The notes beneath the pieces are model-generated. The model searched no databases, was not told where the DNA came from, and was given only the letters and a program-made list of their open reading frames with translations. From a plasmid: a DNA stretch of 33,568 bases. This document shows positions 3,571-25,197 of this stretch, piece by piece. The stretch lies in the NCBI RefSeq assembly GCF_988242995.1, contig NZ_OZ547045.1, one strand, 5' to 3'. The first letter of the stretch is position 1, and each line of letters begins with the position of its first letter. The translations under genes were made by a program, and so were the position numbers.

Positions 3571-4278
3571 TTATTCCGTTACGTTAGGCATGGAAAGATC
3601 TTCACCATCAGCACCGAGTACAAAGCGCTTCTGGGCGTATTGTTTTTGTTCCTGCAACATCTTGTCTTGCGAGGTTTGCAGCATTGCCATCAGTTGCAGC
3701 TTCGTTTGCTCCCCCTGAATAGCACCTTGCGCGGTCTGGATACGCGCCTGAAGGTCAGCGATTTGTTTCATATCCGTTGTTGAGTCAATTTGATTGGTCA
3801 GCTCCTGAATGTTGTTCAGCTCTGCCATTTCATTGTTATAAGCGGTCTGCGCCATCACGCGGTCATAAGCCCCTTTTTCAGCCAGTTTCTGCTTAATGAA
3901 ACTCATCGCTTCGGAACGGTTCATACCGTCAATCTGCGACTGAAATTCCTTCAGCATGGATTGAGCCGATGAAGTGATACCGGAATTGCTGTTCATGGCA
4001 TCGCTGTAAACCTGCGTCCAGTCAGACGGTAAATTTCCTTTGAGCTTACTAATGTCGCCATTCAGCAAATTACCAATGCCGGAGTTGCCGGTTAACGAGG
4101 CAAGGGTTTGCTCCTGCCTCAGCAATTGAGATTTGAGTTGTTCAATTTGCTGCGTCATTAACGAAACCTGTTCAACAGCCTGGGCCAGATTAGTAGGATC
4201 GTTAACAACCAGTTGCGCATTAACGGCAACCGGTGAAATAGCCAGAGCTAAAAAAACGCTAACAAGTGTCTTTTTCAT
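3571..4278 (-). CDS. virB5: VirB5-family minor pilus/adhesin protein
   Basis: 235 aa with a signal peptide, followed by a helical, Gln-rich sequence. Located immediately downstream of virB4. Confidence 0.85.
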
Positions 4279-4287
4279 GTCGTTACC

Positions 4288-6924
4288 TCACGCTGCGAGT
4301 ACAGATTTAAAGTAGGATTCGAGCCATTTATCAGGGGTATCATCCCCAATTTGCTCAATGATTTTCGCCAGTGTTTCGGCGTTTTGTGGTTCCCCTGACA
4401 GGATGCTAAGTATCTTGTCCAGCTTCCTGAAGTTCTCAGGCGTCTTAACGCGCGGGGCCAGGTTGAATTGCGCCATCGCACTTTGACTACCTTGTTTCAC
4501 AAGGAACTGGCGGGAGTTCTCAGGAATAGACAACAGCGCGTCAAACTCTGCCGGTGTCAGCTTGAGACGGGTTACGTAGTCCTCATAATCCGCATCCGGG
4601 TTTTCCAGAAGAATTTTAGTTACGCACTGCTGCATGATGGTTTTGCCAATGGCACTATCCAGCGCATCGTTTGGCTCTTGCGTGGAGAATACGTAAACCG
4701 CGTCTTTCTTACGGTCTGTTTTCAGGCCGCGTTTCACTTCCACCCGCATAATGGGATCGTCAAGGTACTGGTGAAACTCGTCGAATATCTGAATAACCCG
4801 GCGGCGGCCATCAATAGACTGACGCACACGGAAATTGAGATACATCAGCAGCGGTGTACGTGTTGCAGGAGGTATTTCATTATCTGCAACAATGAAATCA
4901 GTCAGGTCAAAACCGTAAATATCGTACTCACCGAGATTGAGGGAATCCGCGTCGTTATCGAACAACCACCCGTTTTCATGGCCGCGAGTCCACGGAACAA
5001 GCAACGATGCCAGCGTTTGTTTGCTACCCGCTGTTTGATATGGGTTAGGCATCTGACGCATCAACATATCCACGGTACGTAAATCCGTAGGGATAAGGGA
5101 GTTCTCATCCATCAAAGCGTCAACAGCGCGGTTAAGGTCATTCACCTGATCAGCATCGAGCACACTGCCTTTGGTAATTTCAGCACACAGGCGCATCAGG
5201 CGCTTACAAAACGCAATGTTAACTTTAGTGCCTGGCATCTGTAGAGGTGCCCACCCGGACGCAACACCTTCTTTCAAAACTGTATAGTGACCGTGTAACG
5301 CTTTAATCAGCGGCATCATGCCCTGATCACGGTCATAGGCAAAAATGCGCGGGTTATACTTCATTGATTGCGTCAGCAGGAAATTAAGCAGCGTCGTTTT
5401 ACCGGCCCCCGAACGGCCAAGCATTAACGTATGCGCCAGCGGGCGCTTACCGAAAGACATTTCATCTGCGGGCGTTACATGAAAGTTCATATACAGCGGC
5501 GTATTTGCCACAGTCTTGAACAACGTCAGTGCTGGCCCCCACGGATTATTGTTTGCTTTCCCGGACATAAAATTATGGAAAGGAGAGAAACAAAGAAAAT
5601 TCCAGCTATTCAGCGGGCAAGGGCGCGGCGATAAATGTTGATTAGCCGGGAGTTTTGCATAATAGGCCGCTTCGGAAGCTAACCCTACCTGGCTGGCGAT
5701 CAAGCCGCAATTGTTCAGCATATTTCTGGCTACACCGGCGTTTGAACGGGCCTCTTTGAGAGACTTGCCAAAGGTGTGTACCGTCAAATGATGCCAGCCC
5801 ATGATAAAGGTACGTGAAACCACGCCATCAACGGCGTCACTCATCTGGTTTATCTGCGTAAAGGACGGATCGCCTGTTTCCAGCAGCGCTTTTTGCTGGT
5901 TAGTAAGGTAAGTTCTTGCCGCTTGCTGGGACATACAGCAATACGTTTGAGTTAATACAAACTCAAACGGTGCTTCCATCAGGATATTGATTTGACCTGG
6001 TTCTGTATCAGAATCGTAATCCCGGATTTCAACGGCAGACGTGTAGCGGCGTTCGTCAGTACCGCGAATCTCGATACCATCCCCCCAAAATGAGGATATT
6101 GGGCGGGTAGTAGCTAAATATTCACGGATTCGGCCACGACAAACCGGCACTGGTGCCCACTCACCGTTAACCAGGTAATAGAGCCACTCAAGCGCTTTAG
6201 AATAGGTGTGTTGAGCACCACTAAAGACTTCTTTATCTTCCTGAATGTCCTGATATTCCACATCAGCCAGTAAATCCTCACGCAGATCGATAATGTCCTC
6301 ATCATCATCTTCTTCTGCATCTTCCTTTTTCTGCTCAGGAATGACATTCCCTCGCTTGTCGCGGAAGTAATAGCCTAAACGGTCGATGCCATAAGGACGC
6401 AGGGAGTTCATGACCTGCTCACAAACATCTTCCAACGCACCAATAGCATCAGTTTGCATTTCGCGCAGCTCGTCAGCCGATGGCTTATCAAACTTTGCCA
6501 GCATTTTTTGAGCGGCATCCCCTACCGGGTTATAAACAACCGTTAGGTAGAGGTCATTTACCATCATAGGAGTATCATCAAACTGATCGCGATAGTATTC
6601 ATTCACCATGCGCGGGAACGTCATATTGTAATGCGTGTCAGGATAATTATTAATTTCGCGGTGGTGTAAGTGAGTCCATAACTTAATATGTTCACTACCA
6701 ATACCCTTTAAAAGCTGATTTAAATCGGCATGCCACTTAATAAGTTCGGCATCAGAAGCGCAATCATGAGTTCGCCCCCGAATTTTAAATACAGAAAGGT
6801 ACTCCCCATTTACCGTACTGATAATATGAGGTGTTACATGGTAGGAGTAAGGAATATATTTTAAAGAGGATGGTTCTTTTCTGTAATCTTTAACCCCCCT
6901 CTTTTTCATTTCCGCTACGGCCAT
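4288..6924 (-). CDS. virB4: VirB4-family T4SS ATPase
   Basis: 878 aa with Walker A GRSGAGKTTLLNFLL. Length and synteny are typical of VirB4/TrwK/TraB. Confidence 0.95.
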   Translation of the reverse strand: MAVAEMKKRGVKDYRKEPSSLKYIPYSYHVTPHIISTVNGEYLSVFKIRGRTHDCASDAELIKWHADLNQLLKGIGSEHIKLWTHLHHREINNYPDTHYNMTFPRMVNEYYRDQFDDTPMMVNDLYLTVVYNPVGDAAQKMLAKFDKPSADELREMQTDAIGALEDVCEQVMNSLRPYGIDRLGYYFRDKRGNVIPEQKKEDAEEDDDEDIIDLREDLLADVEYQDIQEDKEVFSGAQHTYSKALEWLYYLVNGEWAPVPVCRGRIREYLATTRPISSFWGDGIEIRGTDERRYTSAVEIRDYDSDTEPGQINILMEAPFEFVLTQTYCCMSQQAARTYLTNQQKALLETGDPSFTQINQMSDAVDGVVSRTFIMGWHHLTVHTFGKSLKEARSNAGVARNMLNNCGLIASQVGLASEAAYYAKLPANQHLSPRPCPLNSWNFLCFSPFHNFMSGKANNNPWGPALTLFKTVANTPLYMNFHVTPADEMSFGKRPLAHTLMLGRSGAGKTTLLNFLLTQSMKYNPRIFAYDRDQGMMPLIKALHGHYTVLKEGVASGWAPLQMPGTKVNIAFCKRLMRLCAEITKGSVLDADQVNDLNRAVDALMDENSLIPTDLRTVDMLMRQMPNPYQTAGSKQTLASLLVPWTRGHENGWLFDNDADSLNLGEYDIYGFDLTDFIVADNEIPPATRTPLLMYLNFRVRQSIDGRRRVIQIFDEFHQYLDDPIMRVEVKRGLKTDRKKDAVYVFSTQEPNDALDSAIGKTIMQQCVTKILLENPDADYEDYVTRLKLTPAEFDALLSIPENSRQFLVKQGSQSAMAQFNLAPRVKTPENFRKLDKILSILSGEPQNAETLAKIIEQIGDDTPDKWLESYFKSVLAA

Positions 6925-9711: not shown

Positions 9712-10026
9712 ATGAAACTTAAAAGCATGATCTTTACCGCCGCTCTTTTACTGACAGGTTGCGCCAGTCAATCACAGGTTGAGCAGCTAACCAAGCAGGT
9801 GAACACGCTCAAAACAGATATGTATAACCTACAGATTCAACAGCGTAACGATACTAAGGCACTTCAGCGCGAGGTACAGAAATCTCGCCCAATCGGTGTT
9901 TGCTACCTTGACGGCCAGCCCTATTCACAGGGAGCGGTCATTGCTGGCCGCATTTGCGCCAGCAATGGCGTTATTGTCAACGACAGGCCCGCAGAAGTTT
10001 CATGGCAGGTTTATCACCGCCGCTAA
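9712..10026 (+). CDS. Lipoprotein with an Lpp-like coiled N-terminus and a Cys-containing C-terminal domain
   Basis: 104 aa with lipobox LLTGC. Followed by a strong terminator. Confidence 0.65.
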   Translation: MKLKSMIFTAALLLTGCASQSQVEQLTKQVNTLKTDMYNLQIQQRNDTKALQREVQKSRPIGVCYLDGQPYSQGAVIAGRICASNGVIVNDRPAEVSWQVYHRR

Positions 10027-17961: not shown

Positions 17962-18264
17962 ATGGCAGTAGAACGCATTTCCCCTGAAGAATGGCAGCGC
18001 ATCGCACCGGCATTGCGTACATGCAGCCAGGTAACGATCGATATGGCTTATGCCGTACTGGTTGATGGCCGTAAACAAGTAGATGTGGCGTCAGAGTTTG
18101 ACCGGTCAAAGCAAACGGTCAATGCGGCTATCAGGCGCGTTACTGCAATTTTTAACGAGGTTATCCCGGAAGATGAGCAGTTAGAATTTGTACAAGTCTG
18201 GTTGCCGCCAGAGCTGGCGAAGCAGGTAAAAGAAATGGCTAAACCGTATCAGAATAAAAAATAA
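17962..18264 (+). CDS. KorA/TrfB-family HTH repressor (ArdK-like candidate regulator of the leading-region promoters)
   Basis: 100 aa. The protein is colinear with RK2 KorA as I remember it (...TIDMAYAVLVDGRKQVDVASEFDRSKQTVNAAIRRV...). Confidence 0.7.
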   Translation: MAVERISPEEWQRIAPALRTCSQVTIDMAYAVLVDGRKQVDVASEFDRSKQTVNAAIRRVTAIFNEVIPEDEQLEFVQVWLPPELAKQVKEMAKPYQNKK

Positions 18265-20031: not shown

Positions 20032-20284
20032 GCGAGGATAACCGGCGGGAGGCGAACTGTCCTCCACAGCTCCCCGTTCCGTTGGATGGTCTGCCGTTCC
20101 TCCATTACCGGTATTCCACACTAGCGCGGTGTGGCGTCAATAGTTCGCTTCGCCGCTTCGCGCTATTGACCCCACCCCTTGCGCCAGTGTTACACACCGG
20201 TTGTCGGAAACGACAAACCCTCCAACTACCCTACAGGTGCTTTATGGCCGAAATTCTCCAACTCCTCCCGCCGGTTATCCTCGC
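20032..20284 (+). repeat. Perfect 21-bp long-range inverted repeat bracketing a structured 211-nt segment
   Basis: GCGAGGATAACCGGCGGGAGG (20032..20052) pairs with CCTCCCGCCGGTTATCCTCGC (20264..20284). Internal hairpins are CCACAC/GTGTGG, GTCAATAG/CTATTGAC and TTGTCG-GAAA-CGACAA. Confidence 0.9.
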
Positions 20285-20380: not shown

Positions 20381-21004
20381 GCTCCCCTTGCTTACCCTGC
20401 TGTACGATCCGTGGATTTCACAGTTGAATAATTTTTTGTGGTCGCCGTAATTGGCCCCGCTGCGCCAGTCGCTTACTTAGGGCGTTCCCTGCGGGCCGGG
20501 CTTTCGTGCTGCGCATCGAGCCAGGCAAGCTGTCTCGCCCCTTCGGGCTTCAATCCCTAACGCCTCCGGGCTTCGCCCTCCGCGCTCCGCTTGGCCCCCA
20601 CGCCCTGCGCCGGACTTGCCCCGCCTACGGCGGCCCCGCCCCTCCGGGGTGGCTTCGCCATCCTCTGCCAGCGGCACCGGCGCTAACGTGCCTGTAGGGG
20701 CGCTGGCCGCGCTGCGGCCATCCCCCCAACACCCGGATAAATCGCGCCCGGCCCGTCGCTACGCGCCAGCCCGCCCGCTCAACCGGGCCGTTGTGACGGG
20801 CCACTGTTCCGGCAGCGGCATCGTGTGACAGCCCGCTAAAACCGGCTTTGCAGGGAGGGGGGGGGCGCGTCTCCCGGTTTGATCCCGCAAGGCCCGGCAA
20901 TTTGACCACGTCGCCCAGGTTGAGATCGGCGCAATTGCCTTTTATTTGTCGGCATCGGCGCTAAATTTAAGTAAATTTACCGTACTATATAATGATACTT
21001 AAAG

Positions 21005-21033
21005 TTGACTTTTTAGGGGGGAAAATCTATACT
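21005..21033 (+). promoter_or_regulatory. Promoter P4 (TTGACT-N17-TATACT)
   Basis: -35 at 21005..21010, -10 at 21028..21033. Confidence 0.75.
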
Positions 21034-21040
21034 TTATTTA

Positions 21041-21113
21041 CGGTTAGCAATGGTGCTGACCGACCCGGAACCAGCGGCGGCAACCGCTCCGGGTAATCTG
21101 CGAAGGAAAATGT
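21041..21113 (+). promoter_or_regulatory. Structured leader L6
   Basis: Full hairpins 1 and 2, with CTGCGAAGG before the ATG at 21114. Confidence 0.7.
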
Positions 21114-21727: not shown

Positions 21728-21746
21728 CCCTCTATTTATGTCTTAT

Positions 21747-21771
21747 TTTAGTATCATATTATGATACTAAA
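21747..21771. promoter_or_regulatory. Perfect 25-bp palindromic operator abutting promoter P5
   Basis: TTTAGTATCATA-T-TATGATACTAAA. The right half (ATGATACT.AA) is the element conserved upstream of P1-P4. Confidence 0.65.
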
Positions 21772-21773
21772 TA

Positions 21774-21802
21774 TTGACTTATCAGGCCGCAAAAAGTATA
21801 CT
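21774..21802 (+). promoter_or_regulatory. Promoter P5 (TTGACT-N17-TATACT)
   Basis: -35 at 21774..21779, -10 at 21797..21802. Confidence 0.75.
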
Positions 21803-21810
21803 TTATTTAT

Positions 21811-21851
21811 CGGTTAGCAATGGTGCTGACCGTATGCGAAGGAGTAAAGTT
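21811..21851 (+). promoter_or_regulatory. Truncated leader L7 (hairpin 1 + TATGCGAAGGAG; hairpin 2 absent)
   Basis: CGGTTAGCA-ATGG-TGCTGACCG is joined directly to TATGCGAAGGAG. Confidence 0.6.
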
Positions 21852-22007: not shown

Positions 22008-22043
22008 TCATTCACCCGCGCCGTTGGCGCGGGTAACTCTCAC

Positions 22044-22082
22044 AGCGGCGGCAACCGCTTTTTTATGCGAAGGAGCAACGCG
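22044..22082 (+). promoter_or_regulatory. Partial leader L8 (hairpin-2 core + T-run + TATGCGAAGGAG)
   Basis: AGCGG-CGGCAA-CCGCT-TTTTT, then ATGCGAAGGAG before the ATG at 22083. Confidence 0.55.
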
Positions 22083-22265
22083 ATGTATCTATCTTTGATG
22101 GAACAAGCACGACAGGCAGAGGAATTGCGCGACTGGAAAACCGCCGCGCAACTCTACACCCAGGCGATGGCCGTTAGTCCAAAAGCCAGAACTATGCGCC
22201 AGCGCCGCGAAAGGCTGTATCTGCAACAGCGCATTGAGTTTTGCGAGCGTAATTCGAGAATGTAA
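22083..22265 (+). CDS. Hypothetical helical small protein (60 aa)
   Basis: The ATG at 22083 follows leader L8. A bidirectional terminator follows. Confidence 0.55.
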   Translation: MYLSLMEQARQAEELRDWKTAAQLYTQAMAVSPKARTMRQRRERLYLQQRIEFCERNSRM

Positions 22266-22271
22266 AAAACT

Positions 22272-22304
22272 AAAAAAAACCGCCTCAATCCGGCGGTTTT
22301 TTTT
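22272..22304. terminator. Bidirectional rho-independent terminator between convergent genes
   Basis: A8-ACCGCC-loop-GGCGGT-T8. Confidence 0.8.
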
Positions 22305-22306
22305 GG

Positions 22307-23074
22307 TTAGGCTGCCTGGTATTCTGCCTTTCCGCAGTGTTCGCCGCCACAGTACAGAATTAGGCCCGGTTTCCCCCAAACGTTGGTATGGCATTTCGGG
22401 CAGGTGTATTTTGTCCGGTTTGATTTATTAACCGGCGTATCCGGTGGCGGGTTTACCAGGGAAAGGGCTTGCGTGATCTCATCATCCAGCTCGCCATTGT
22501 CGCTGTAACCCTCATCATCATCGCCATCATCAACATAACCTTTGCCGTCTGCGCCGGTTGGCGTTGGTGGCGTTGGTTTGTGCGGTGGGAACCTGTCCAG
22601 CCAGCTCAGTTTAAACTCCGTGGTTAGCAACTCCTTGCAGGCTGTATCAAACGGGCCGCCGTCCTCGATGTAGTGGCTCATCGACTCACCGACGCGCTTT
22701 CCTCCGGGCTGGCCGCTGTCGGATGGTATCAGGCCGATGCGCTCCATCATCGCCGCCCACTCTTTATTGTGGTATCCACGGCGTCCCGGTTGGCCGGTGT
22801 GTTGTTGGTACTGGTGAACCATTTCATGCACAAGCGTGGAAAGTGTGTCGCGTATCGTGCGGATCGAGAAATAGACCGGATTCATGGCGATTTCATCAAC
22901 GATTTGGCCGGTTGTGCGGCCAACAAAACGGGCATTTGAGAAATAGCCAAACGTTCGTTTTTCGCGCTGAAGGGTGATTAGGCAGGGCGGCAGCGTACTA
23001 TCAAACAGCCGCTGATTGAAAAATTCGTATGCGCGTTGAAGCTCGTCGTAAGTTTCCTGGGTAGGGATGATCAT
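22307..23074 (-). CDS. SprT-like zinc metalloprotease with a C-terminal zinc ribbon
   Basis: HEMVH motif in an SprT-like context (LSTLVHEMVHQYQQ...YHNKEWAAMMERIGL). The C-terminus is CPKCHTNVWG...YCGGEHC. The likely start is MIIPTQ at 23074 (GAGG SD). The ORF-track start at 23113 lies inside an operator. Confidence 0.75.
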   Translation of the reverse strand: MIIPTQETYDELQRAYEFFNQRLFDSTLPPCLITLQREKRTFGYFSNARFVGRTTGQIVDEIAMNPVYFSIRTIRDTLSTLVHEMVHQYQQHTGQPGRRGYHNKEWAAMMERIGLIPSDSGQPGGKRVGESMSHYIEDGGPFDTACKELLTTEFKLSWLDRFPPHKPTPPTPTGADGKGYVDDGDDDEGYSDNGELDDEITQALSLVNPPPDTPVNKSNRTKYTCPKCHTNVWGKPGLILYCGGEHCGKAEYQAA

Positions 23075-23096
23075 AGCGGCCTCATAAATTAATTTC

Positions 23097-23140
23097 TGGA
23101 TTGTGCAATCCATTTTATTGCTTATGGATTGTGCAATCCA
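23097..23140. promoter_or_regulatory. Two copies of the 16-bp motif TGGATTGTGCAATCCA flanking a -10-like TAAAAT (minus strand) of the SprT-like gene
   Basis: Copies at 23097..23112 and 23125..23140. The minus-strand TAAAAT corresponds to 23112..23117. Confidence 0.6.
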
Positions 23141-23151
23141 CTTTTATTTTG

Positions 23152-23233
23152 GGCGTTCCCTGCGGGCGGGCTTTCGTGCTGCGCATCGAGCCAGGCAAGC
23201 TGTCTCGACCCTTCGGGCGTCAATCCCTAACGC
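23152..23233 (+). repeat. Isolated copy of CUP module M1
   Basis: GGCGTTCCCTGCGGGCGGGCTTTCGTGCTGCGCATCGAGCCAGGCAAGCTGTCTCGACCCTTCGGGCGTCAATCCCTAACGC matches the M1 segment of copies B and C, apart from one missing base and about three substitutions. Confidence 0.85.
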
Positions 23234-24380: not shown

Positions 24381-24815
24381 TTAGAAACCTTTCTTATTAC
24401 CTACGCTACCTTTGAATGAGGTTGCGACTTTCTTTGCCTCATCACCAATTTTTTTAAAATCGGTATCGGATAAAAATTCTTTGTTCCCGCCCATATCCTC
24501 AACTAATTTTTCTGGTTCTGGATTGTGCAATCCAGTTTCCACCGGTTCCGCTTTCTCCTGCTCTTTTGGATTGTGCAATCCAGTATTTACCGTACTTTCT
24601 GGATTGTGCAATCCACCTTTTTTGCGTTTCAATCTTGCCCGGTACAAGGCCATATCTAACGCTTTCACAGTCACAGAAAAGCTGTATTCACTATCAAGAA
24701 GTTGAGCAATTTCTTGCCTACTAATACCCTTGTCTAACAAACCTTCAATCTCATCAAGACGCGCTCTTACAGCCGCAGCGAGATTGCGAGGTTCCAGTAA
24801 AAGGTCTTTTTTCAT
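24381..24815 (-). CDS. stbA: StbA-like DNA-binding protein (N-terminal HTH, repetitive linker)
   Basis: 144 aa. It is the first gene next to oriT. It has an HTH-like segment (GISRQEIAQLL) and three GLHNP repeats. The assignment is by synteny with R388/pKM101. Confidence 0.65.
   Translation of the reverse strand: MKKDLLLEPRNLAAAVRARLDEIEGLLDKGISRQEIAQLLDSEYSFSVTVKALDMALYRARLKRKKGGLHNPESTVNTGLHNPKEQEKAEPVETGLHNPEPEKLVEDMGGNKEFLSDTDFKKIGDEAKKVATSFKGSVGNKKGF
24519..24615. repeat. Three further copies of TGGATTGTGCAATCCA inside the stbA coding sequence
   Basis: Copies at 24519..24534, 24567..24582 and 24600..24615. All are in the same orientation as the two at 23097..23140. Each encodes GLHNP. 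Confidence 0.9.
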
Positions 24816-24876
24816 ACCACCCCCGCTTGTCGAATTTCACTATATGGCAGCCTGTTTTAGCTGTCAATCGGTTTTT

Positions 24877-25012
24877 GTAGTATTTCAGTAGTATTCCTGT
24901 AGTAATTCAGTAGTAACGCTTGTCGATACCGCTCATTTTTGTAGTATATCTGTAGTAATGGCTATTTCAGTTTGTAGTATTTTAGTAGTAATTCAGTAGT
25001 ATCGGTGTAGAA
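24877..25012. repeat. Phased GTAGTA repeat array (putative StbA-binding, centromere-like site)
   Basis: GTAGTA at 24877, 24888, 24899, 24910, 24941, 24952, 24974, 24985 and 24996, plus GTAGAA at 25007. Within each cluster the copies fall on an 11-bp lattice. Confidence 0.7.
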
Positions 25013-25121
25013 AACTTTCATGCAAGCATGAAAGTGGTGAATGTGAACGCTTTTTGAGCGTTTTATGCGTGTGTAAGACCTGTTTCTCCCTTAAAAAAGG
25101 CGTGTTATGGTATCCCTTAAT

Positions 25122-25160
25122 GGCTATACACCATACGCAATTACGATTTTCATCGTAAAT
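25122..25160 (-). other. oriT core: inverted repeat + predicted nic site (minus strand)
   Basis: The minus strand reads ATTTACGAT-GAAA-ATCGTAAT-TGCGTATGGTGT/ATAGCC. This resembles the R388 site GCGCACC-GAAA-GGTGCGT-ATTGTCT/ATAGCC, as I recall it. The predicted nick is between 25128 and 25127. Confidence 0.6.
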
Positions 25161-25197
25161 GCTTGAAAACAAAACAAATTATTCTAATTTGTGTTTT

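Follow-up and report, generated by a model that had tools for sequence, protein, structure and literature searches.

A conserved palindrome travels with mpr, a plasmid gene for a SprT-like zinc protease, and may serve as the operator of that gene

The DNA analyzed here (the window) is a stretch of 33,568 nucleotides from contig NZ_OZ547045.1 (assembly GCF_988242995.1), and it is an IncN-type conjugative plasmid (MOBF/MPF_T, about 34 kb). We focused on the gene mpr and on the promoter in front of it. Judged from sequence comparison, this gene is not a new one but the already named mpr of plasmid backbones, the "Mpr zinc metalloproteinase" of pKM101 and RA3. The mpr region shares 98.6% identity with the Salmonella plasmid pCFSAN004085 and about 92% with roughly 90 more enterobacterial plasmids; all of them have the gene downstream of stbA-stbB-stbC, annotated as "SprT-like domain-containing protein". 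What is new in this study is that a 16-bp palindrome of the mpr promoter travels with mpr as a conserved cis-element across Proteobacteria. The features of the locus are as follows.

23125–23140, no strand assigned: operator O1, a 16-bp palindrome (TGGATTGCACAATCCA) that overlaps the putative -35 element (repeat scan)
23097–23112, no strand assigned: operator O2, the identical palindrome, which overlaps the last base of the putative -10 element and the expected transcription start (repeat scan)
23112–23140, minus strand: putative sigma-70 promoter, -35 TGGATT (23140–23135), 17-nt spacer, -10 TAAAAT (23117–23112), read from the sequence and below the threshold of the consensus scan
23080–23083, minus strand: ribosome-binding site GAGG, 5 nt upstream of the ATG (sequence reading)
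22307–23074, minus strand: coding sequence of mpr, 255 aa, stop codon 22307–22309 (start from homologue alignment and the GAGG site)
22814–22828, minus strand: HEMVH catalytic motif, H83 E84 M85 V86 H87 (homologue alignment)
22769–22771, minus strand: codon of H102, the predicted third zinc ligand, in an invariant Y-H-N motif; it aligns with the His of the Spartan "EGHGPEF" segment
22430–22579, minus strand: acidic Pro-rich disordered linker, residues 166–215 (net charge -11, 16% Pro)
22310–22429, minus strand: basic C-terminal zinc ribbon, residues 216–255, with a conserved N-x-S-N-R-x-K-Y arm (isoelectric point, pI, 9.1; AlphaFold local confidence, pLDDT, 92–96)
22272–22304, no strand assigned: bidirectional intrinsic terminator, common to mpr and a convergent 66-aa gene at 22065–22265 (terminator and inverted-repeat scan)
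24519–24534, 24567–24582 and 24600–24615, no strand assigned: three more exact copies of the palindrome, inside the coding sequence of stbA (24381–24815, minus strand; repeat scan)
25121–25136, minus strand: nic-like core of oriT, TGCGTATGGTGT/ATAGCCATTAAGGGATACC (sequence reading)

A mechanical search gives an open reading frame (ORF) of 268 aa on the minus strand (22307–23113), the first 13 codons of which are the translated operator O2. Because homologues begin with M-x-x-P-T and the 13 extra codons are those of O2, we conclude that the true start is the ATG at 23074–23072, which gives a protein of 255 aa.

Mpr matched the Pfam SprT-like profile PF10263 with an E value of 4e-11 (43.2 bits against a cut-off of 25.6; profile positions 2–96 of 108), and all 120 homologues among the matches listed have PF10263 or fragment status. 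Residue conservation was determined from 45 Mpr homologues that show 52–69% identity. E84, Y101, H102, N103, R220, C225, C228, W233, K235 and C242 were invariant in all of them, and H83 and H87 were kept in 44 of the 45. The ribbon cysteines at residues 225–247 have the arrangement C225-x2-C228 ... C242-x4-C247, the first three being invariant and the fourth being present in 34 homologues. The AlphaFold model of Mpr has a mean pLDDT of 84, and the value drops below 50 at residues 172–195 of the linker. The pI pattern holds across the family; that is, the catalytic domain is near neutral (6.3), the linker is strongly acidic (family median charge -8), and the ribbon is basic (9.1). The initial annotation had described a 255-aa protein with an SprT-type HEMVH core and a C-terminal CxxC...CxxxxC ribbon, separated by an acidic, Pro-rich linker, and this description agrees with our results in every part.

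Some homologues differ from this plan. Five of them (P0087, P0101, P0103, P0107 and P0109) have an N-terminal extension of 60–100 residues with a conserved acidic D-F-N-P-F motif, and in P0107 the catalytic site is altered to REMVS. An antisense ORF of about 88 aa (22673–22939, plus strand) lies opposite the HEMVH region and recurs in 52 homologous loci. It is almost certainly a mirror of the conserved coding sequence and not a gene.

The two operators O1 and O2 are exact copies of TGGATTGTGCAATCCA, and the putative promoter of mpr lies between them. Both copies are conserved in relatives. The window contains five exact copies of the palindrome, compared with 0.46 expected, and none of 100 shuffled sequences reached five. 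Within the window, the palindrome is missing from every other promoter. The initial annotation had assigned dedicated operators to the gene. This is correct in the sense that the mpr promoter has its own pair, but the palindrome is not unique in the plasmid, because the other three copies are located inside stbA.

Each of the three copies in stbA encodes, in frame, the pentapeptide GLHNP in the linker of StbA, and the copies are about 500–600 bp from nic. A similar arrangement was found in other plasmids. The stbA of IncN1 carries three copies of IncN1's own operator variant, which encode xLHNT. IncP-9-type loci have one site in stbA, two at the mpr promoter and one just downstream, in the P. 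syringae plasmid pPK_RT811, stbA and the region upstream of mpr contain four sites each, and class-B plasmids have one matching copy inside a stbA-like gene. In five plasmid lineages the type of the stbA site equals the type of the site at the mpr promoter, even with mpr 10 kb away from stbA. The GLHNP and xLHNT repeats of StbA would be a clear case of a protein linker that is constrained by a DNA-binding site.

We collected 80 loci by protein similarity, taking one genome per GTDB species; 79 of them were usable. A strict match was defined as at most 2 mismatches in 16, and the proximal zone as -150 to +10 relative to the mpr start. A strict site was present within this zone in 55 of the 79 loci, and the hosts belonged to the Alpha-, Beta- and Gammaproteobacteria. 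The proximal zones (12.7 kb) contained 69 strict sites and the remaining 586 kb contained 27, which is a 118-fold difference in density. Several of these 27 sites belong to promoters of operons in which mpr is one of the genes. The consensus was wTTGkATTGyrCAATmCAAw, in which T1, G2, G7, C10, C15 and A16 of the palindrome are invariant. When the window and the plasmid pTOR_01 were included, 57 of 82 loci were positive, and stbB was nearby in only 10 of these 57.

The complete IncU plasmid pTOR_01 (20.9 kb), whose Mpr is 50% identical, carries the palindrome twice, both times upstream of mpr and nowhere else. This plasmid has korA, korB, korC and kfrA, and the stb operon is absent from it. The site also changes together with the protein. 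The mpr of IncN1, which is 10 kb from stbA, has TGTATTGCACAATACA at -33, with both arms altered symmetrically. A third symmetric class, CTGTATCGTACGATACAG, goes with a divergent Mpr clade that has HEQxH and a K/R-rich arm (IncX3, L080, L085 and L214) and that includes two Pseudomonas loci and one P. syringae plasmid. In IncX3 (L004, pNDM5_025985), a 59-aa ORF and mpr form an operon of two genes in this order, the stop of the ORF overlapping the start of mpr, and CTGTATCGTACGATACAG lies upstream of this ORF (L004 5788–5803).

All-against-all clustering of the ORFs of the loci showed that Mpr is the only family common to all of them. The next real families were ArdK-like (16 loci), ParA (12 loci) and StbB (10 loci). 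We also scanned metagenome contigs for the exact 16-mer and obtained 120 loci, in which the commonest downstream gene was that of Mpr (17 loci, with the site 3–100 bp upstream in most). Five further matches were short stbA contigs. In four mpr-less contigs (L109, L186, L187 and L203), the exact 16-mer lies about 70–130 bp upstream of a small antidote-like ORF of the addiction-module kind; these contigs may be copies of one locus, or may represent a second user of the palindrome.

The nic-like sequence is located between stbA and a traK-like gene on the minus strand, and a hairpin with a GAAA loop precedes it. In the oriT core (25095–25175, minus strand), the hairpin TTACGAT-GAAA-ATCGTAA is followed by TTGCGTATGGTGT/ATAGCCATTAAGGGATACC. 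We take the sequence at 25121–25136 to be a close likeness of the nic region of R388 (MOBF). As far as the sequence of this region tells, the minus strand is the transferred strand, and the order of entry is stbA, stbB, stbC and mpr. The gene mpr is located directly past the stbC terminator (23273–23247), in the leading region, and the distance from mpr to the nic-like site is about 2.0–2.8 kb. The placement of the gene immediately after the stb operon in transfer order, as claimed initially, was therefore confirmed. The additional claim that mpr is an early-entering gene holds for its position but not for its expression. Since stbABC and mpr all have the transferred strand as their coding strand, none of these four genes can be transcribed from the incoming single-stranded DNA, and synthesis of the complementary strand is needed first. 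Convergent genes on the plus strand, with repeats resembling conserved upstream (CUP) repeats in front of them, have the classical leading-region orientation and are free of that limit.

The reading that we favor, to which we would give not quite an even chance, is that Mpr may bind the palindrome, repress itself and act as a DNA-tethered protease during plasmid establishment. We suspect Mpr as the binder because the palindrome is co-inherited with mpr across unrelated backbones of plasmids and of integrative and conjugative elements, and no other gene is. The site seems to be an operator of Mpr's own because it changes symmetrically with the Mpr clades and is concordant between distant sites of one plasmid. 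We infer that a dimer of Mpr would sit on the palindrome and that the invariant arm of the zinc ribbon (N-x-S-N-R-x-K-Y...W-G-K-P) would function as the reading head. The putative promoter lies between two identical palindromes, and binding of Mpr would repress it. After transfer, when the complementary strand has been made and Mpr is absent, a burst from this promoter followed by shut-off might be expected; leading-region promoters of R388 that are under negative feedback are known to overshoot after conjugation. The sites in stbA would hold Mpr on the first DNA to enter, and the tethered Mpr might then cleave proteins on the plasmid DNA, by analogy with DNA-activated Spartan. The basic ribbon (pI 9.1) and the site in the DNA linked to the gene would lend some indirect support to stimulation of the protease by DNA. 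The relaxase, StbA, host nucleoid proteins and defense proteins are candidate substrates on the newly entered DNA. In its most specific form, this idea makes Mpr a sequence-specific SprT protease that is tethered via the ribbon arm to a 16–18-bp palindrome, represses itself, is loaded at stbA and clears proteins on the entered plasmid DNA. We consider the idea in this form somewhat doubtful. We know of no example of a protease addressed by such a DNA "postcode" among the SprT, Spartan and Wss1 enzymes.

Several observations weigh against Mpr as the binder. Searches with Pfam found no recognized sequence-specific DNA-binding domain in Mpr, the matches of the ribbon being insignificant, and the catalytic domain is near neutral (pI 6.3). 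The promoter-proximal site is absent in 25 of the 82 loci, although the zinc ribbons of these loci look the same. When Mpr residues were compared with the G/T type of the operator, the best column was R99 with 0.73 bit, a value that is confounded by phylogeny. Moreover, hybrid G/A sites exist, so position 3 of the palindrome may simply be tolerated. About 100 of the 120 metagenome matches have no mpr nearby; the remaining mpr-less matches are probably those that a 16-mer would give by chance in so large a collection. The Xanthomonas oryzae plasmid pIXO134 (L213), the single mpr-less stb plasmid that we examined, has stbABC, and its stbA keeps CTGTATCGATACAG at 9861–9874. This sequence is a class-B-like palindrome without the four central bases, and a class-B site with 2 mismatches is present at 9965. 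These sites may be decayed or may be used by something other than Mpr. Finally, StbA is a credible alternative binder in the stb-bearing plasmids.

If StbA is the binder, Mpr would be a soluble SprT-like protease of the ordinary kind, and another plasmid repressor, most plausibly StbA in plasmids with stbABC, would use the palindromes as operators. StbA would then control mpr as the StbA of R388 controls ardC, and would bind within its own gene. The StbA of R388 represses PstbA, PardC, Porf7, Porf12 and Porf14 through 9-bp TTGCATCAT repeats, and this repeat matches 7 of 9 bases of the palindrome half-site TTGCACAAT. The agreement of the stbA and promoter site variants in the five stb-bearing lineages is compatible with such control, as is the location of mpr right behind stbC in IncN-type, IncP-9 and P. 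syringae plasmids. However, stbB is not within 4 kb in 47 of the 57 operator-positive loci, the stb-less pTOR_01 retains both mpr operators, and no regulator gene co-occurs with mpr across the loci. In addition, ten 11-bp direct repeats form a separate array in the window at 24872–25013, between the stbA promoter and oriT; they are grouped 4+2+4, and their consensus is about TTyWGTAGTAW. This array resembles the stbS centromere of R388, in which 9-bp repeats spaced by 2 bp occur as two sets of five, and it is probably the StbA binding array, the counterpart of the R388 StbA centromere. We consider control by StbA unlikely. It is also conceivable that a chromosomal factor of the host, conserved across Proteobacteria, binds the palindrome and that mpr is regulated by the host. 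The presence of the site upstream of mpr in three proteobacterial classes would fit with this, and so would the tolerance of G/T and C/A at positions 3 and 14, hybrids included, and the extended T...A flanks, which are above chance in some of the mpr-less metagenome matches (24%). On the other hand, the three symmetric operator classes follow the Mpr clades, and the sites of each plasmid agree in class; a binder that evolves together with the element rather than with the host would be expected to give this pattern. To our knowledge, the palindrome matches no consensus of a global regulator, and a literature search with six spellings of it did not find it; both points speak against a host factor, which we regard as very unlikely.

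The remaining alternative concerns the function of Mpr. It is independent of the regulation of mpr and is compatible with binding of Mpr to the palindrome. That is, Mpr might be an ArdC-like establishment or anti-restriction factor, or might free the incoming strand of proteins covalently bound to it (relaxase, topoisomerase). Mpr has a fold of the Spartan/Wss1 class, members of which cleave DNA-protein crosslinks, its zincin core is shared with ArdC, and mpr lies in the leading region. The gene is also found beside type IA topoisomerase genes in IncX3 and in one MOBP plasmid, after mucAB in IncN1, and beside an ArdR-like gene in a Serratia plasmid. Taken as a whole, however, the contexts are heterogeneous, and mpr often stands by partition genes rather than in leading regions. 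The orientation of mpr precludes expression from the incoming single strand, the N-terminal domain of ArdC is absent and the similarity to ArdC is weak, and the ArdC mutant E229A still promoted conjugation of R388 into P. putida. No match to PADLOC was obtained, and a literature search for plasmid SprT-like genes in anti-defense or in the leading region found no link. We think such a role to be rather improbable.

Other regulators were also considered. KorC was rejected as the binder in IncU, because pTOR_01 has korC and yet carries the palindrome only at mpr. KorA/ArdK is an unlikely binder here, since no other promoter of the window has the palindrome and the CUP-like repeats bear a different inverted repeat. 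A small regulator that travels together with mpr did not emerge from the ORF clustering, in which the second-largest cluster was the spurious antisense ORF inside mpr. YfjB/HerB, a leading-region protein, is ParB-like and is irrelevant to mpr.

The neighbors of mpr differ among plasmids. They are stbABC in the IncN type of this window, in IncP-9 and in P. syringae, mucAB and ardK in IncN1, topB and hns in IncX3, and the partition operon in IncU. In the MOBP plasmid, mpr is next to a type I topoisomerase gene and a gene for a large zincin protein, and in the Serratia plasmid it is next to the ArdR-like gene and the gene of ParA. What these contexts have in common is the part of the backbone that serves establishment and maintenance, rather than the leading region in a strict sense. 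Searching the database gave 2,944 relatives of Mpr, several of which bear the name "Mpr" or "zinc metalloproteinase Mpr protein". By tblastn, homologues were found in 2,647 of 72,556 PLSDB plasmids (about 3.6%), of which 2,206 are conjugative, and these plasmids include IncN1, IncX3, IncU, IncC and Pseudomonas plasmids. The gene is present on IncN, IncX3, IncU and IncP-9 backbones, which spread carbapenemase and other resistance genes. The travelling cis-element makes this uncharacterized backbone gene testable with regard to binding of the palindrome and to proteolysis switched by DNA. If our reading is true, mpr would represent a new establishment or maintenance function near oriT and a possible target for limiting plasmid spread.

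Some other features of the plasmid were observed around mpr. The CUP-like repeats stand before small plus-strand genes (20965–21062, 21734–21832 and 22043–22059), and include an identical 22-nt segment (CGGTTAGCAATGGTGCTGACCG) that has the look of a KorA/ArdK-type operator; an ardK homologue is located at 17962–18264 (Pfam KORA). The segment 20000–21000 has 62% G+C, compared with about 47% plasmid-wide, and a perfect 21-nt inverted repeat (20032–20052 and 20264–20284, with 211 nt between the arms). This segment could be either an element that was inserted or a structured site. Two copies of a GC-rich repeat, each about 90 nt long, are 96% identical; one lies between the stbC terminator and the mpr operators (23144–23233) and the other 2.7 kb away (20473–20563), and a related element flanks mpr in IncP-9-type plasmids (L018, about 3770–3900 and 5960–6100). 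A function of this repeat as a folded single-stranded DNA promoter or priming signal was rejected, because its folding was no better than that of shuffled sequences (z -1.0 to +0.5). No Rfam match to a known RNA family was obtained anywhere in the window. BLASTP gave no alignment between the convergent 66-aa ORF and the ORF at the same position in IncP-9.

Compared with known systems, the closest relatives of the present protein are the Mpr proteins of the IncN plasmids pKM101, R46 and N3 and of the IncU plasmid RA3 (GenBank AAD17385 family), with which length, domain order and motifs match. Matches called Mpr by UniRef or NCBI show 57–60% identity over at least 98% of the length, and the annotated mpr products of IncN1 and IncU are 63–67% and about 50% identical, respectively. 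Plasmid N3 annotates mpr at the site where IncN1 plasmids carry the 63–67% identical gene, and in the literature on RA3, the mpr of that plasmid is called homologous to pKM101 Mpr and has no function assigned to it. The locations differ; the mpr of the window is right after stbC and about 2 kb from nic, whereas that of IncN1 is about 11 kb away beside mucAB and ardK and that of IncU is beside the partition operon. The PADLOC defense and anti-defense profiles gave no family for Mpr at E<=0.01, and its only match in PHROGs was phrog_6361, whose function is not known.

ArdC of the IncW plasmid R388 shares with Mpr the status of a leading-region plasmid protein and a zincin-type metalloprotease core, and the control of ArdC by a repressor, with an overshoot after transfer, can be likened to that proposed for mpr. 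The N-terminal single-stranded DNA-binding domain of ArdC is, however, absent from Mpr. SprT-like was the sole Pfam match at E<=0.05, and the N-terminus is a helix of the SprT domain, in agreement with the earlier statement that no ArdC-like N-terminal domain could be recognized. The third ligand is Glu in ArdC and His in Mpr, so that the metalloprotease domain is not of the ArdC type. The analogy with ArdC thus fails as family membership. Furthermore, since the catalytic mutant E229A of ArdC still promoted conjugation, a protease-dependent phenotype does not follow from the ArdC analogy.

E. coli SprT (NCBIfam NF003421) has an SprT-like domain and a zinc ribbon as Mpr does, but the linker and ribbon sequences are unrelated. 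The NF003421 equivalog score was 12.9 bits against a cut-off of 175, which indicates that Mpr is not an orthologue of E. coli SprT. IrrE/PprI and ImmA cleave a separate helix-turn-helix repressor or carry a helix-turn-helix themselves, whereas the profile search and the ORF clustering gave neither a helix-turn-helix nor a partner repressor gene for mpr.

A solved structure of an Mpr member was not found, the nearest PDB sequence being that of Spartan, with a marginal similarity (E about 0.03–0.05). Comparison of Mpr with the SprT domain of Spartan gave a value of 10.4, with 115 residues aligned and 23% identity, and the corresponding values were about 8 for minigluzincins, 7.7 for Wss1, 6.1 for IrrE and 5.8 for ArdC. 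These values indicate that Mpr has a protease fold of the Spartan/Wss1 class, not of the ArdC class. Modules for ubiquitin, PCNA or p97 are absent from Mpr, which confirms no more than the SprT-like assignment of the initial annotation. In Spartan, the zinc-binding subdomain (residues 167–214) is fused directly to the protease, and together with a basic region it couples DNA binding to activity; in Mpr, the ribbon comes after an acidic disordered linker of about 50 residues. The zinc-binding subdomain of Spartan binds unpaired DNA without sequence preference, whereas the mpr gene carries a specific palindromic site. If our reading is true, a sequence-addressed member would be added to the Spartan/Wss1 class.

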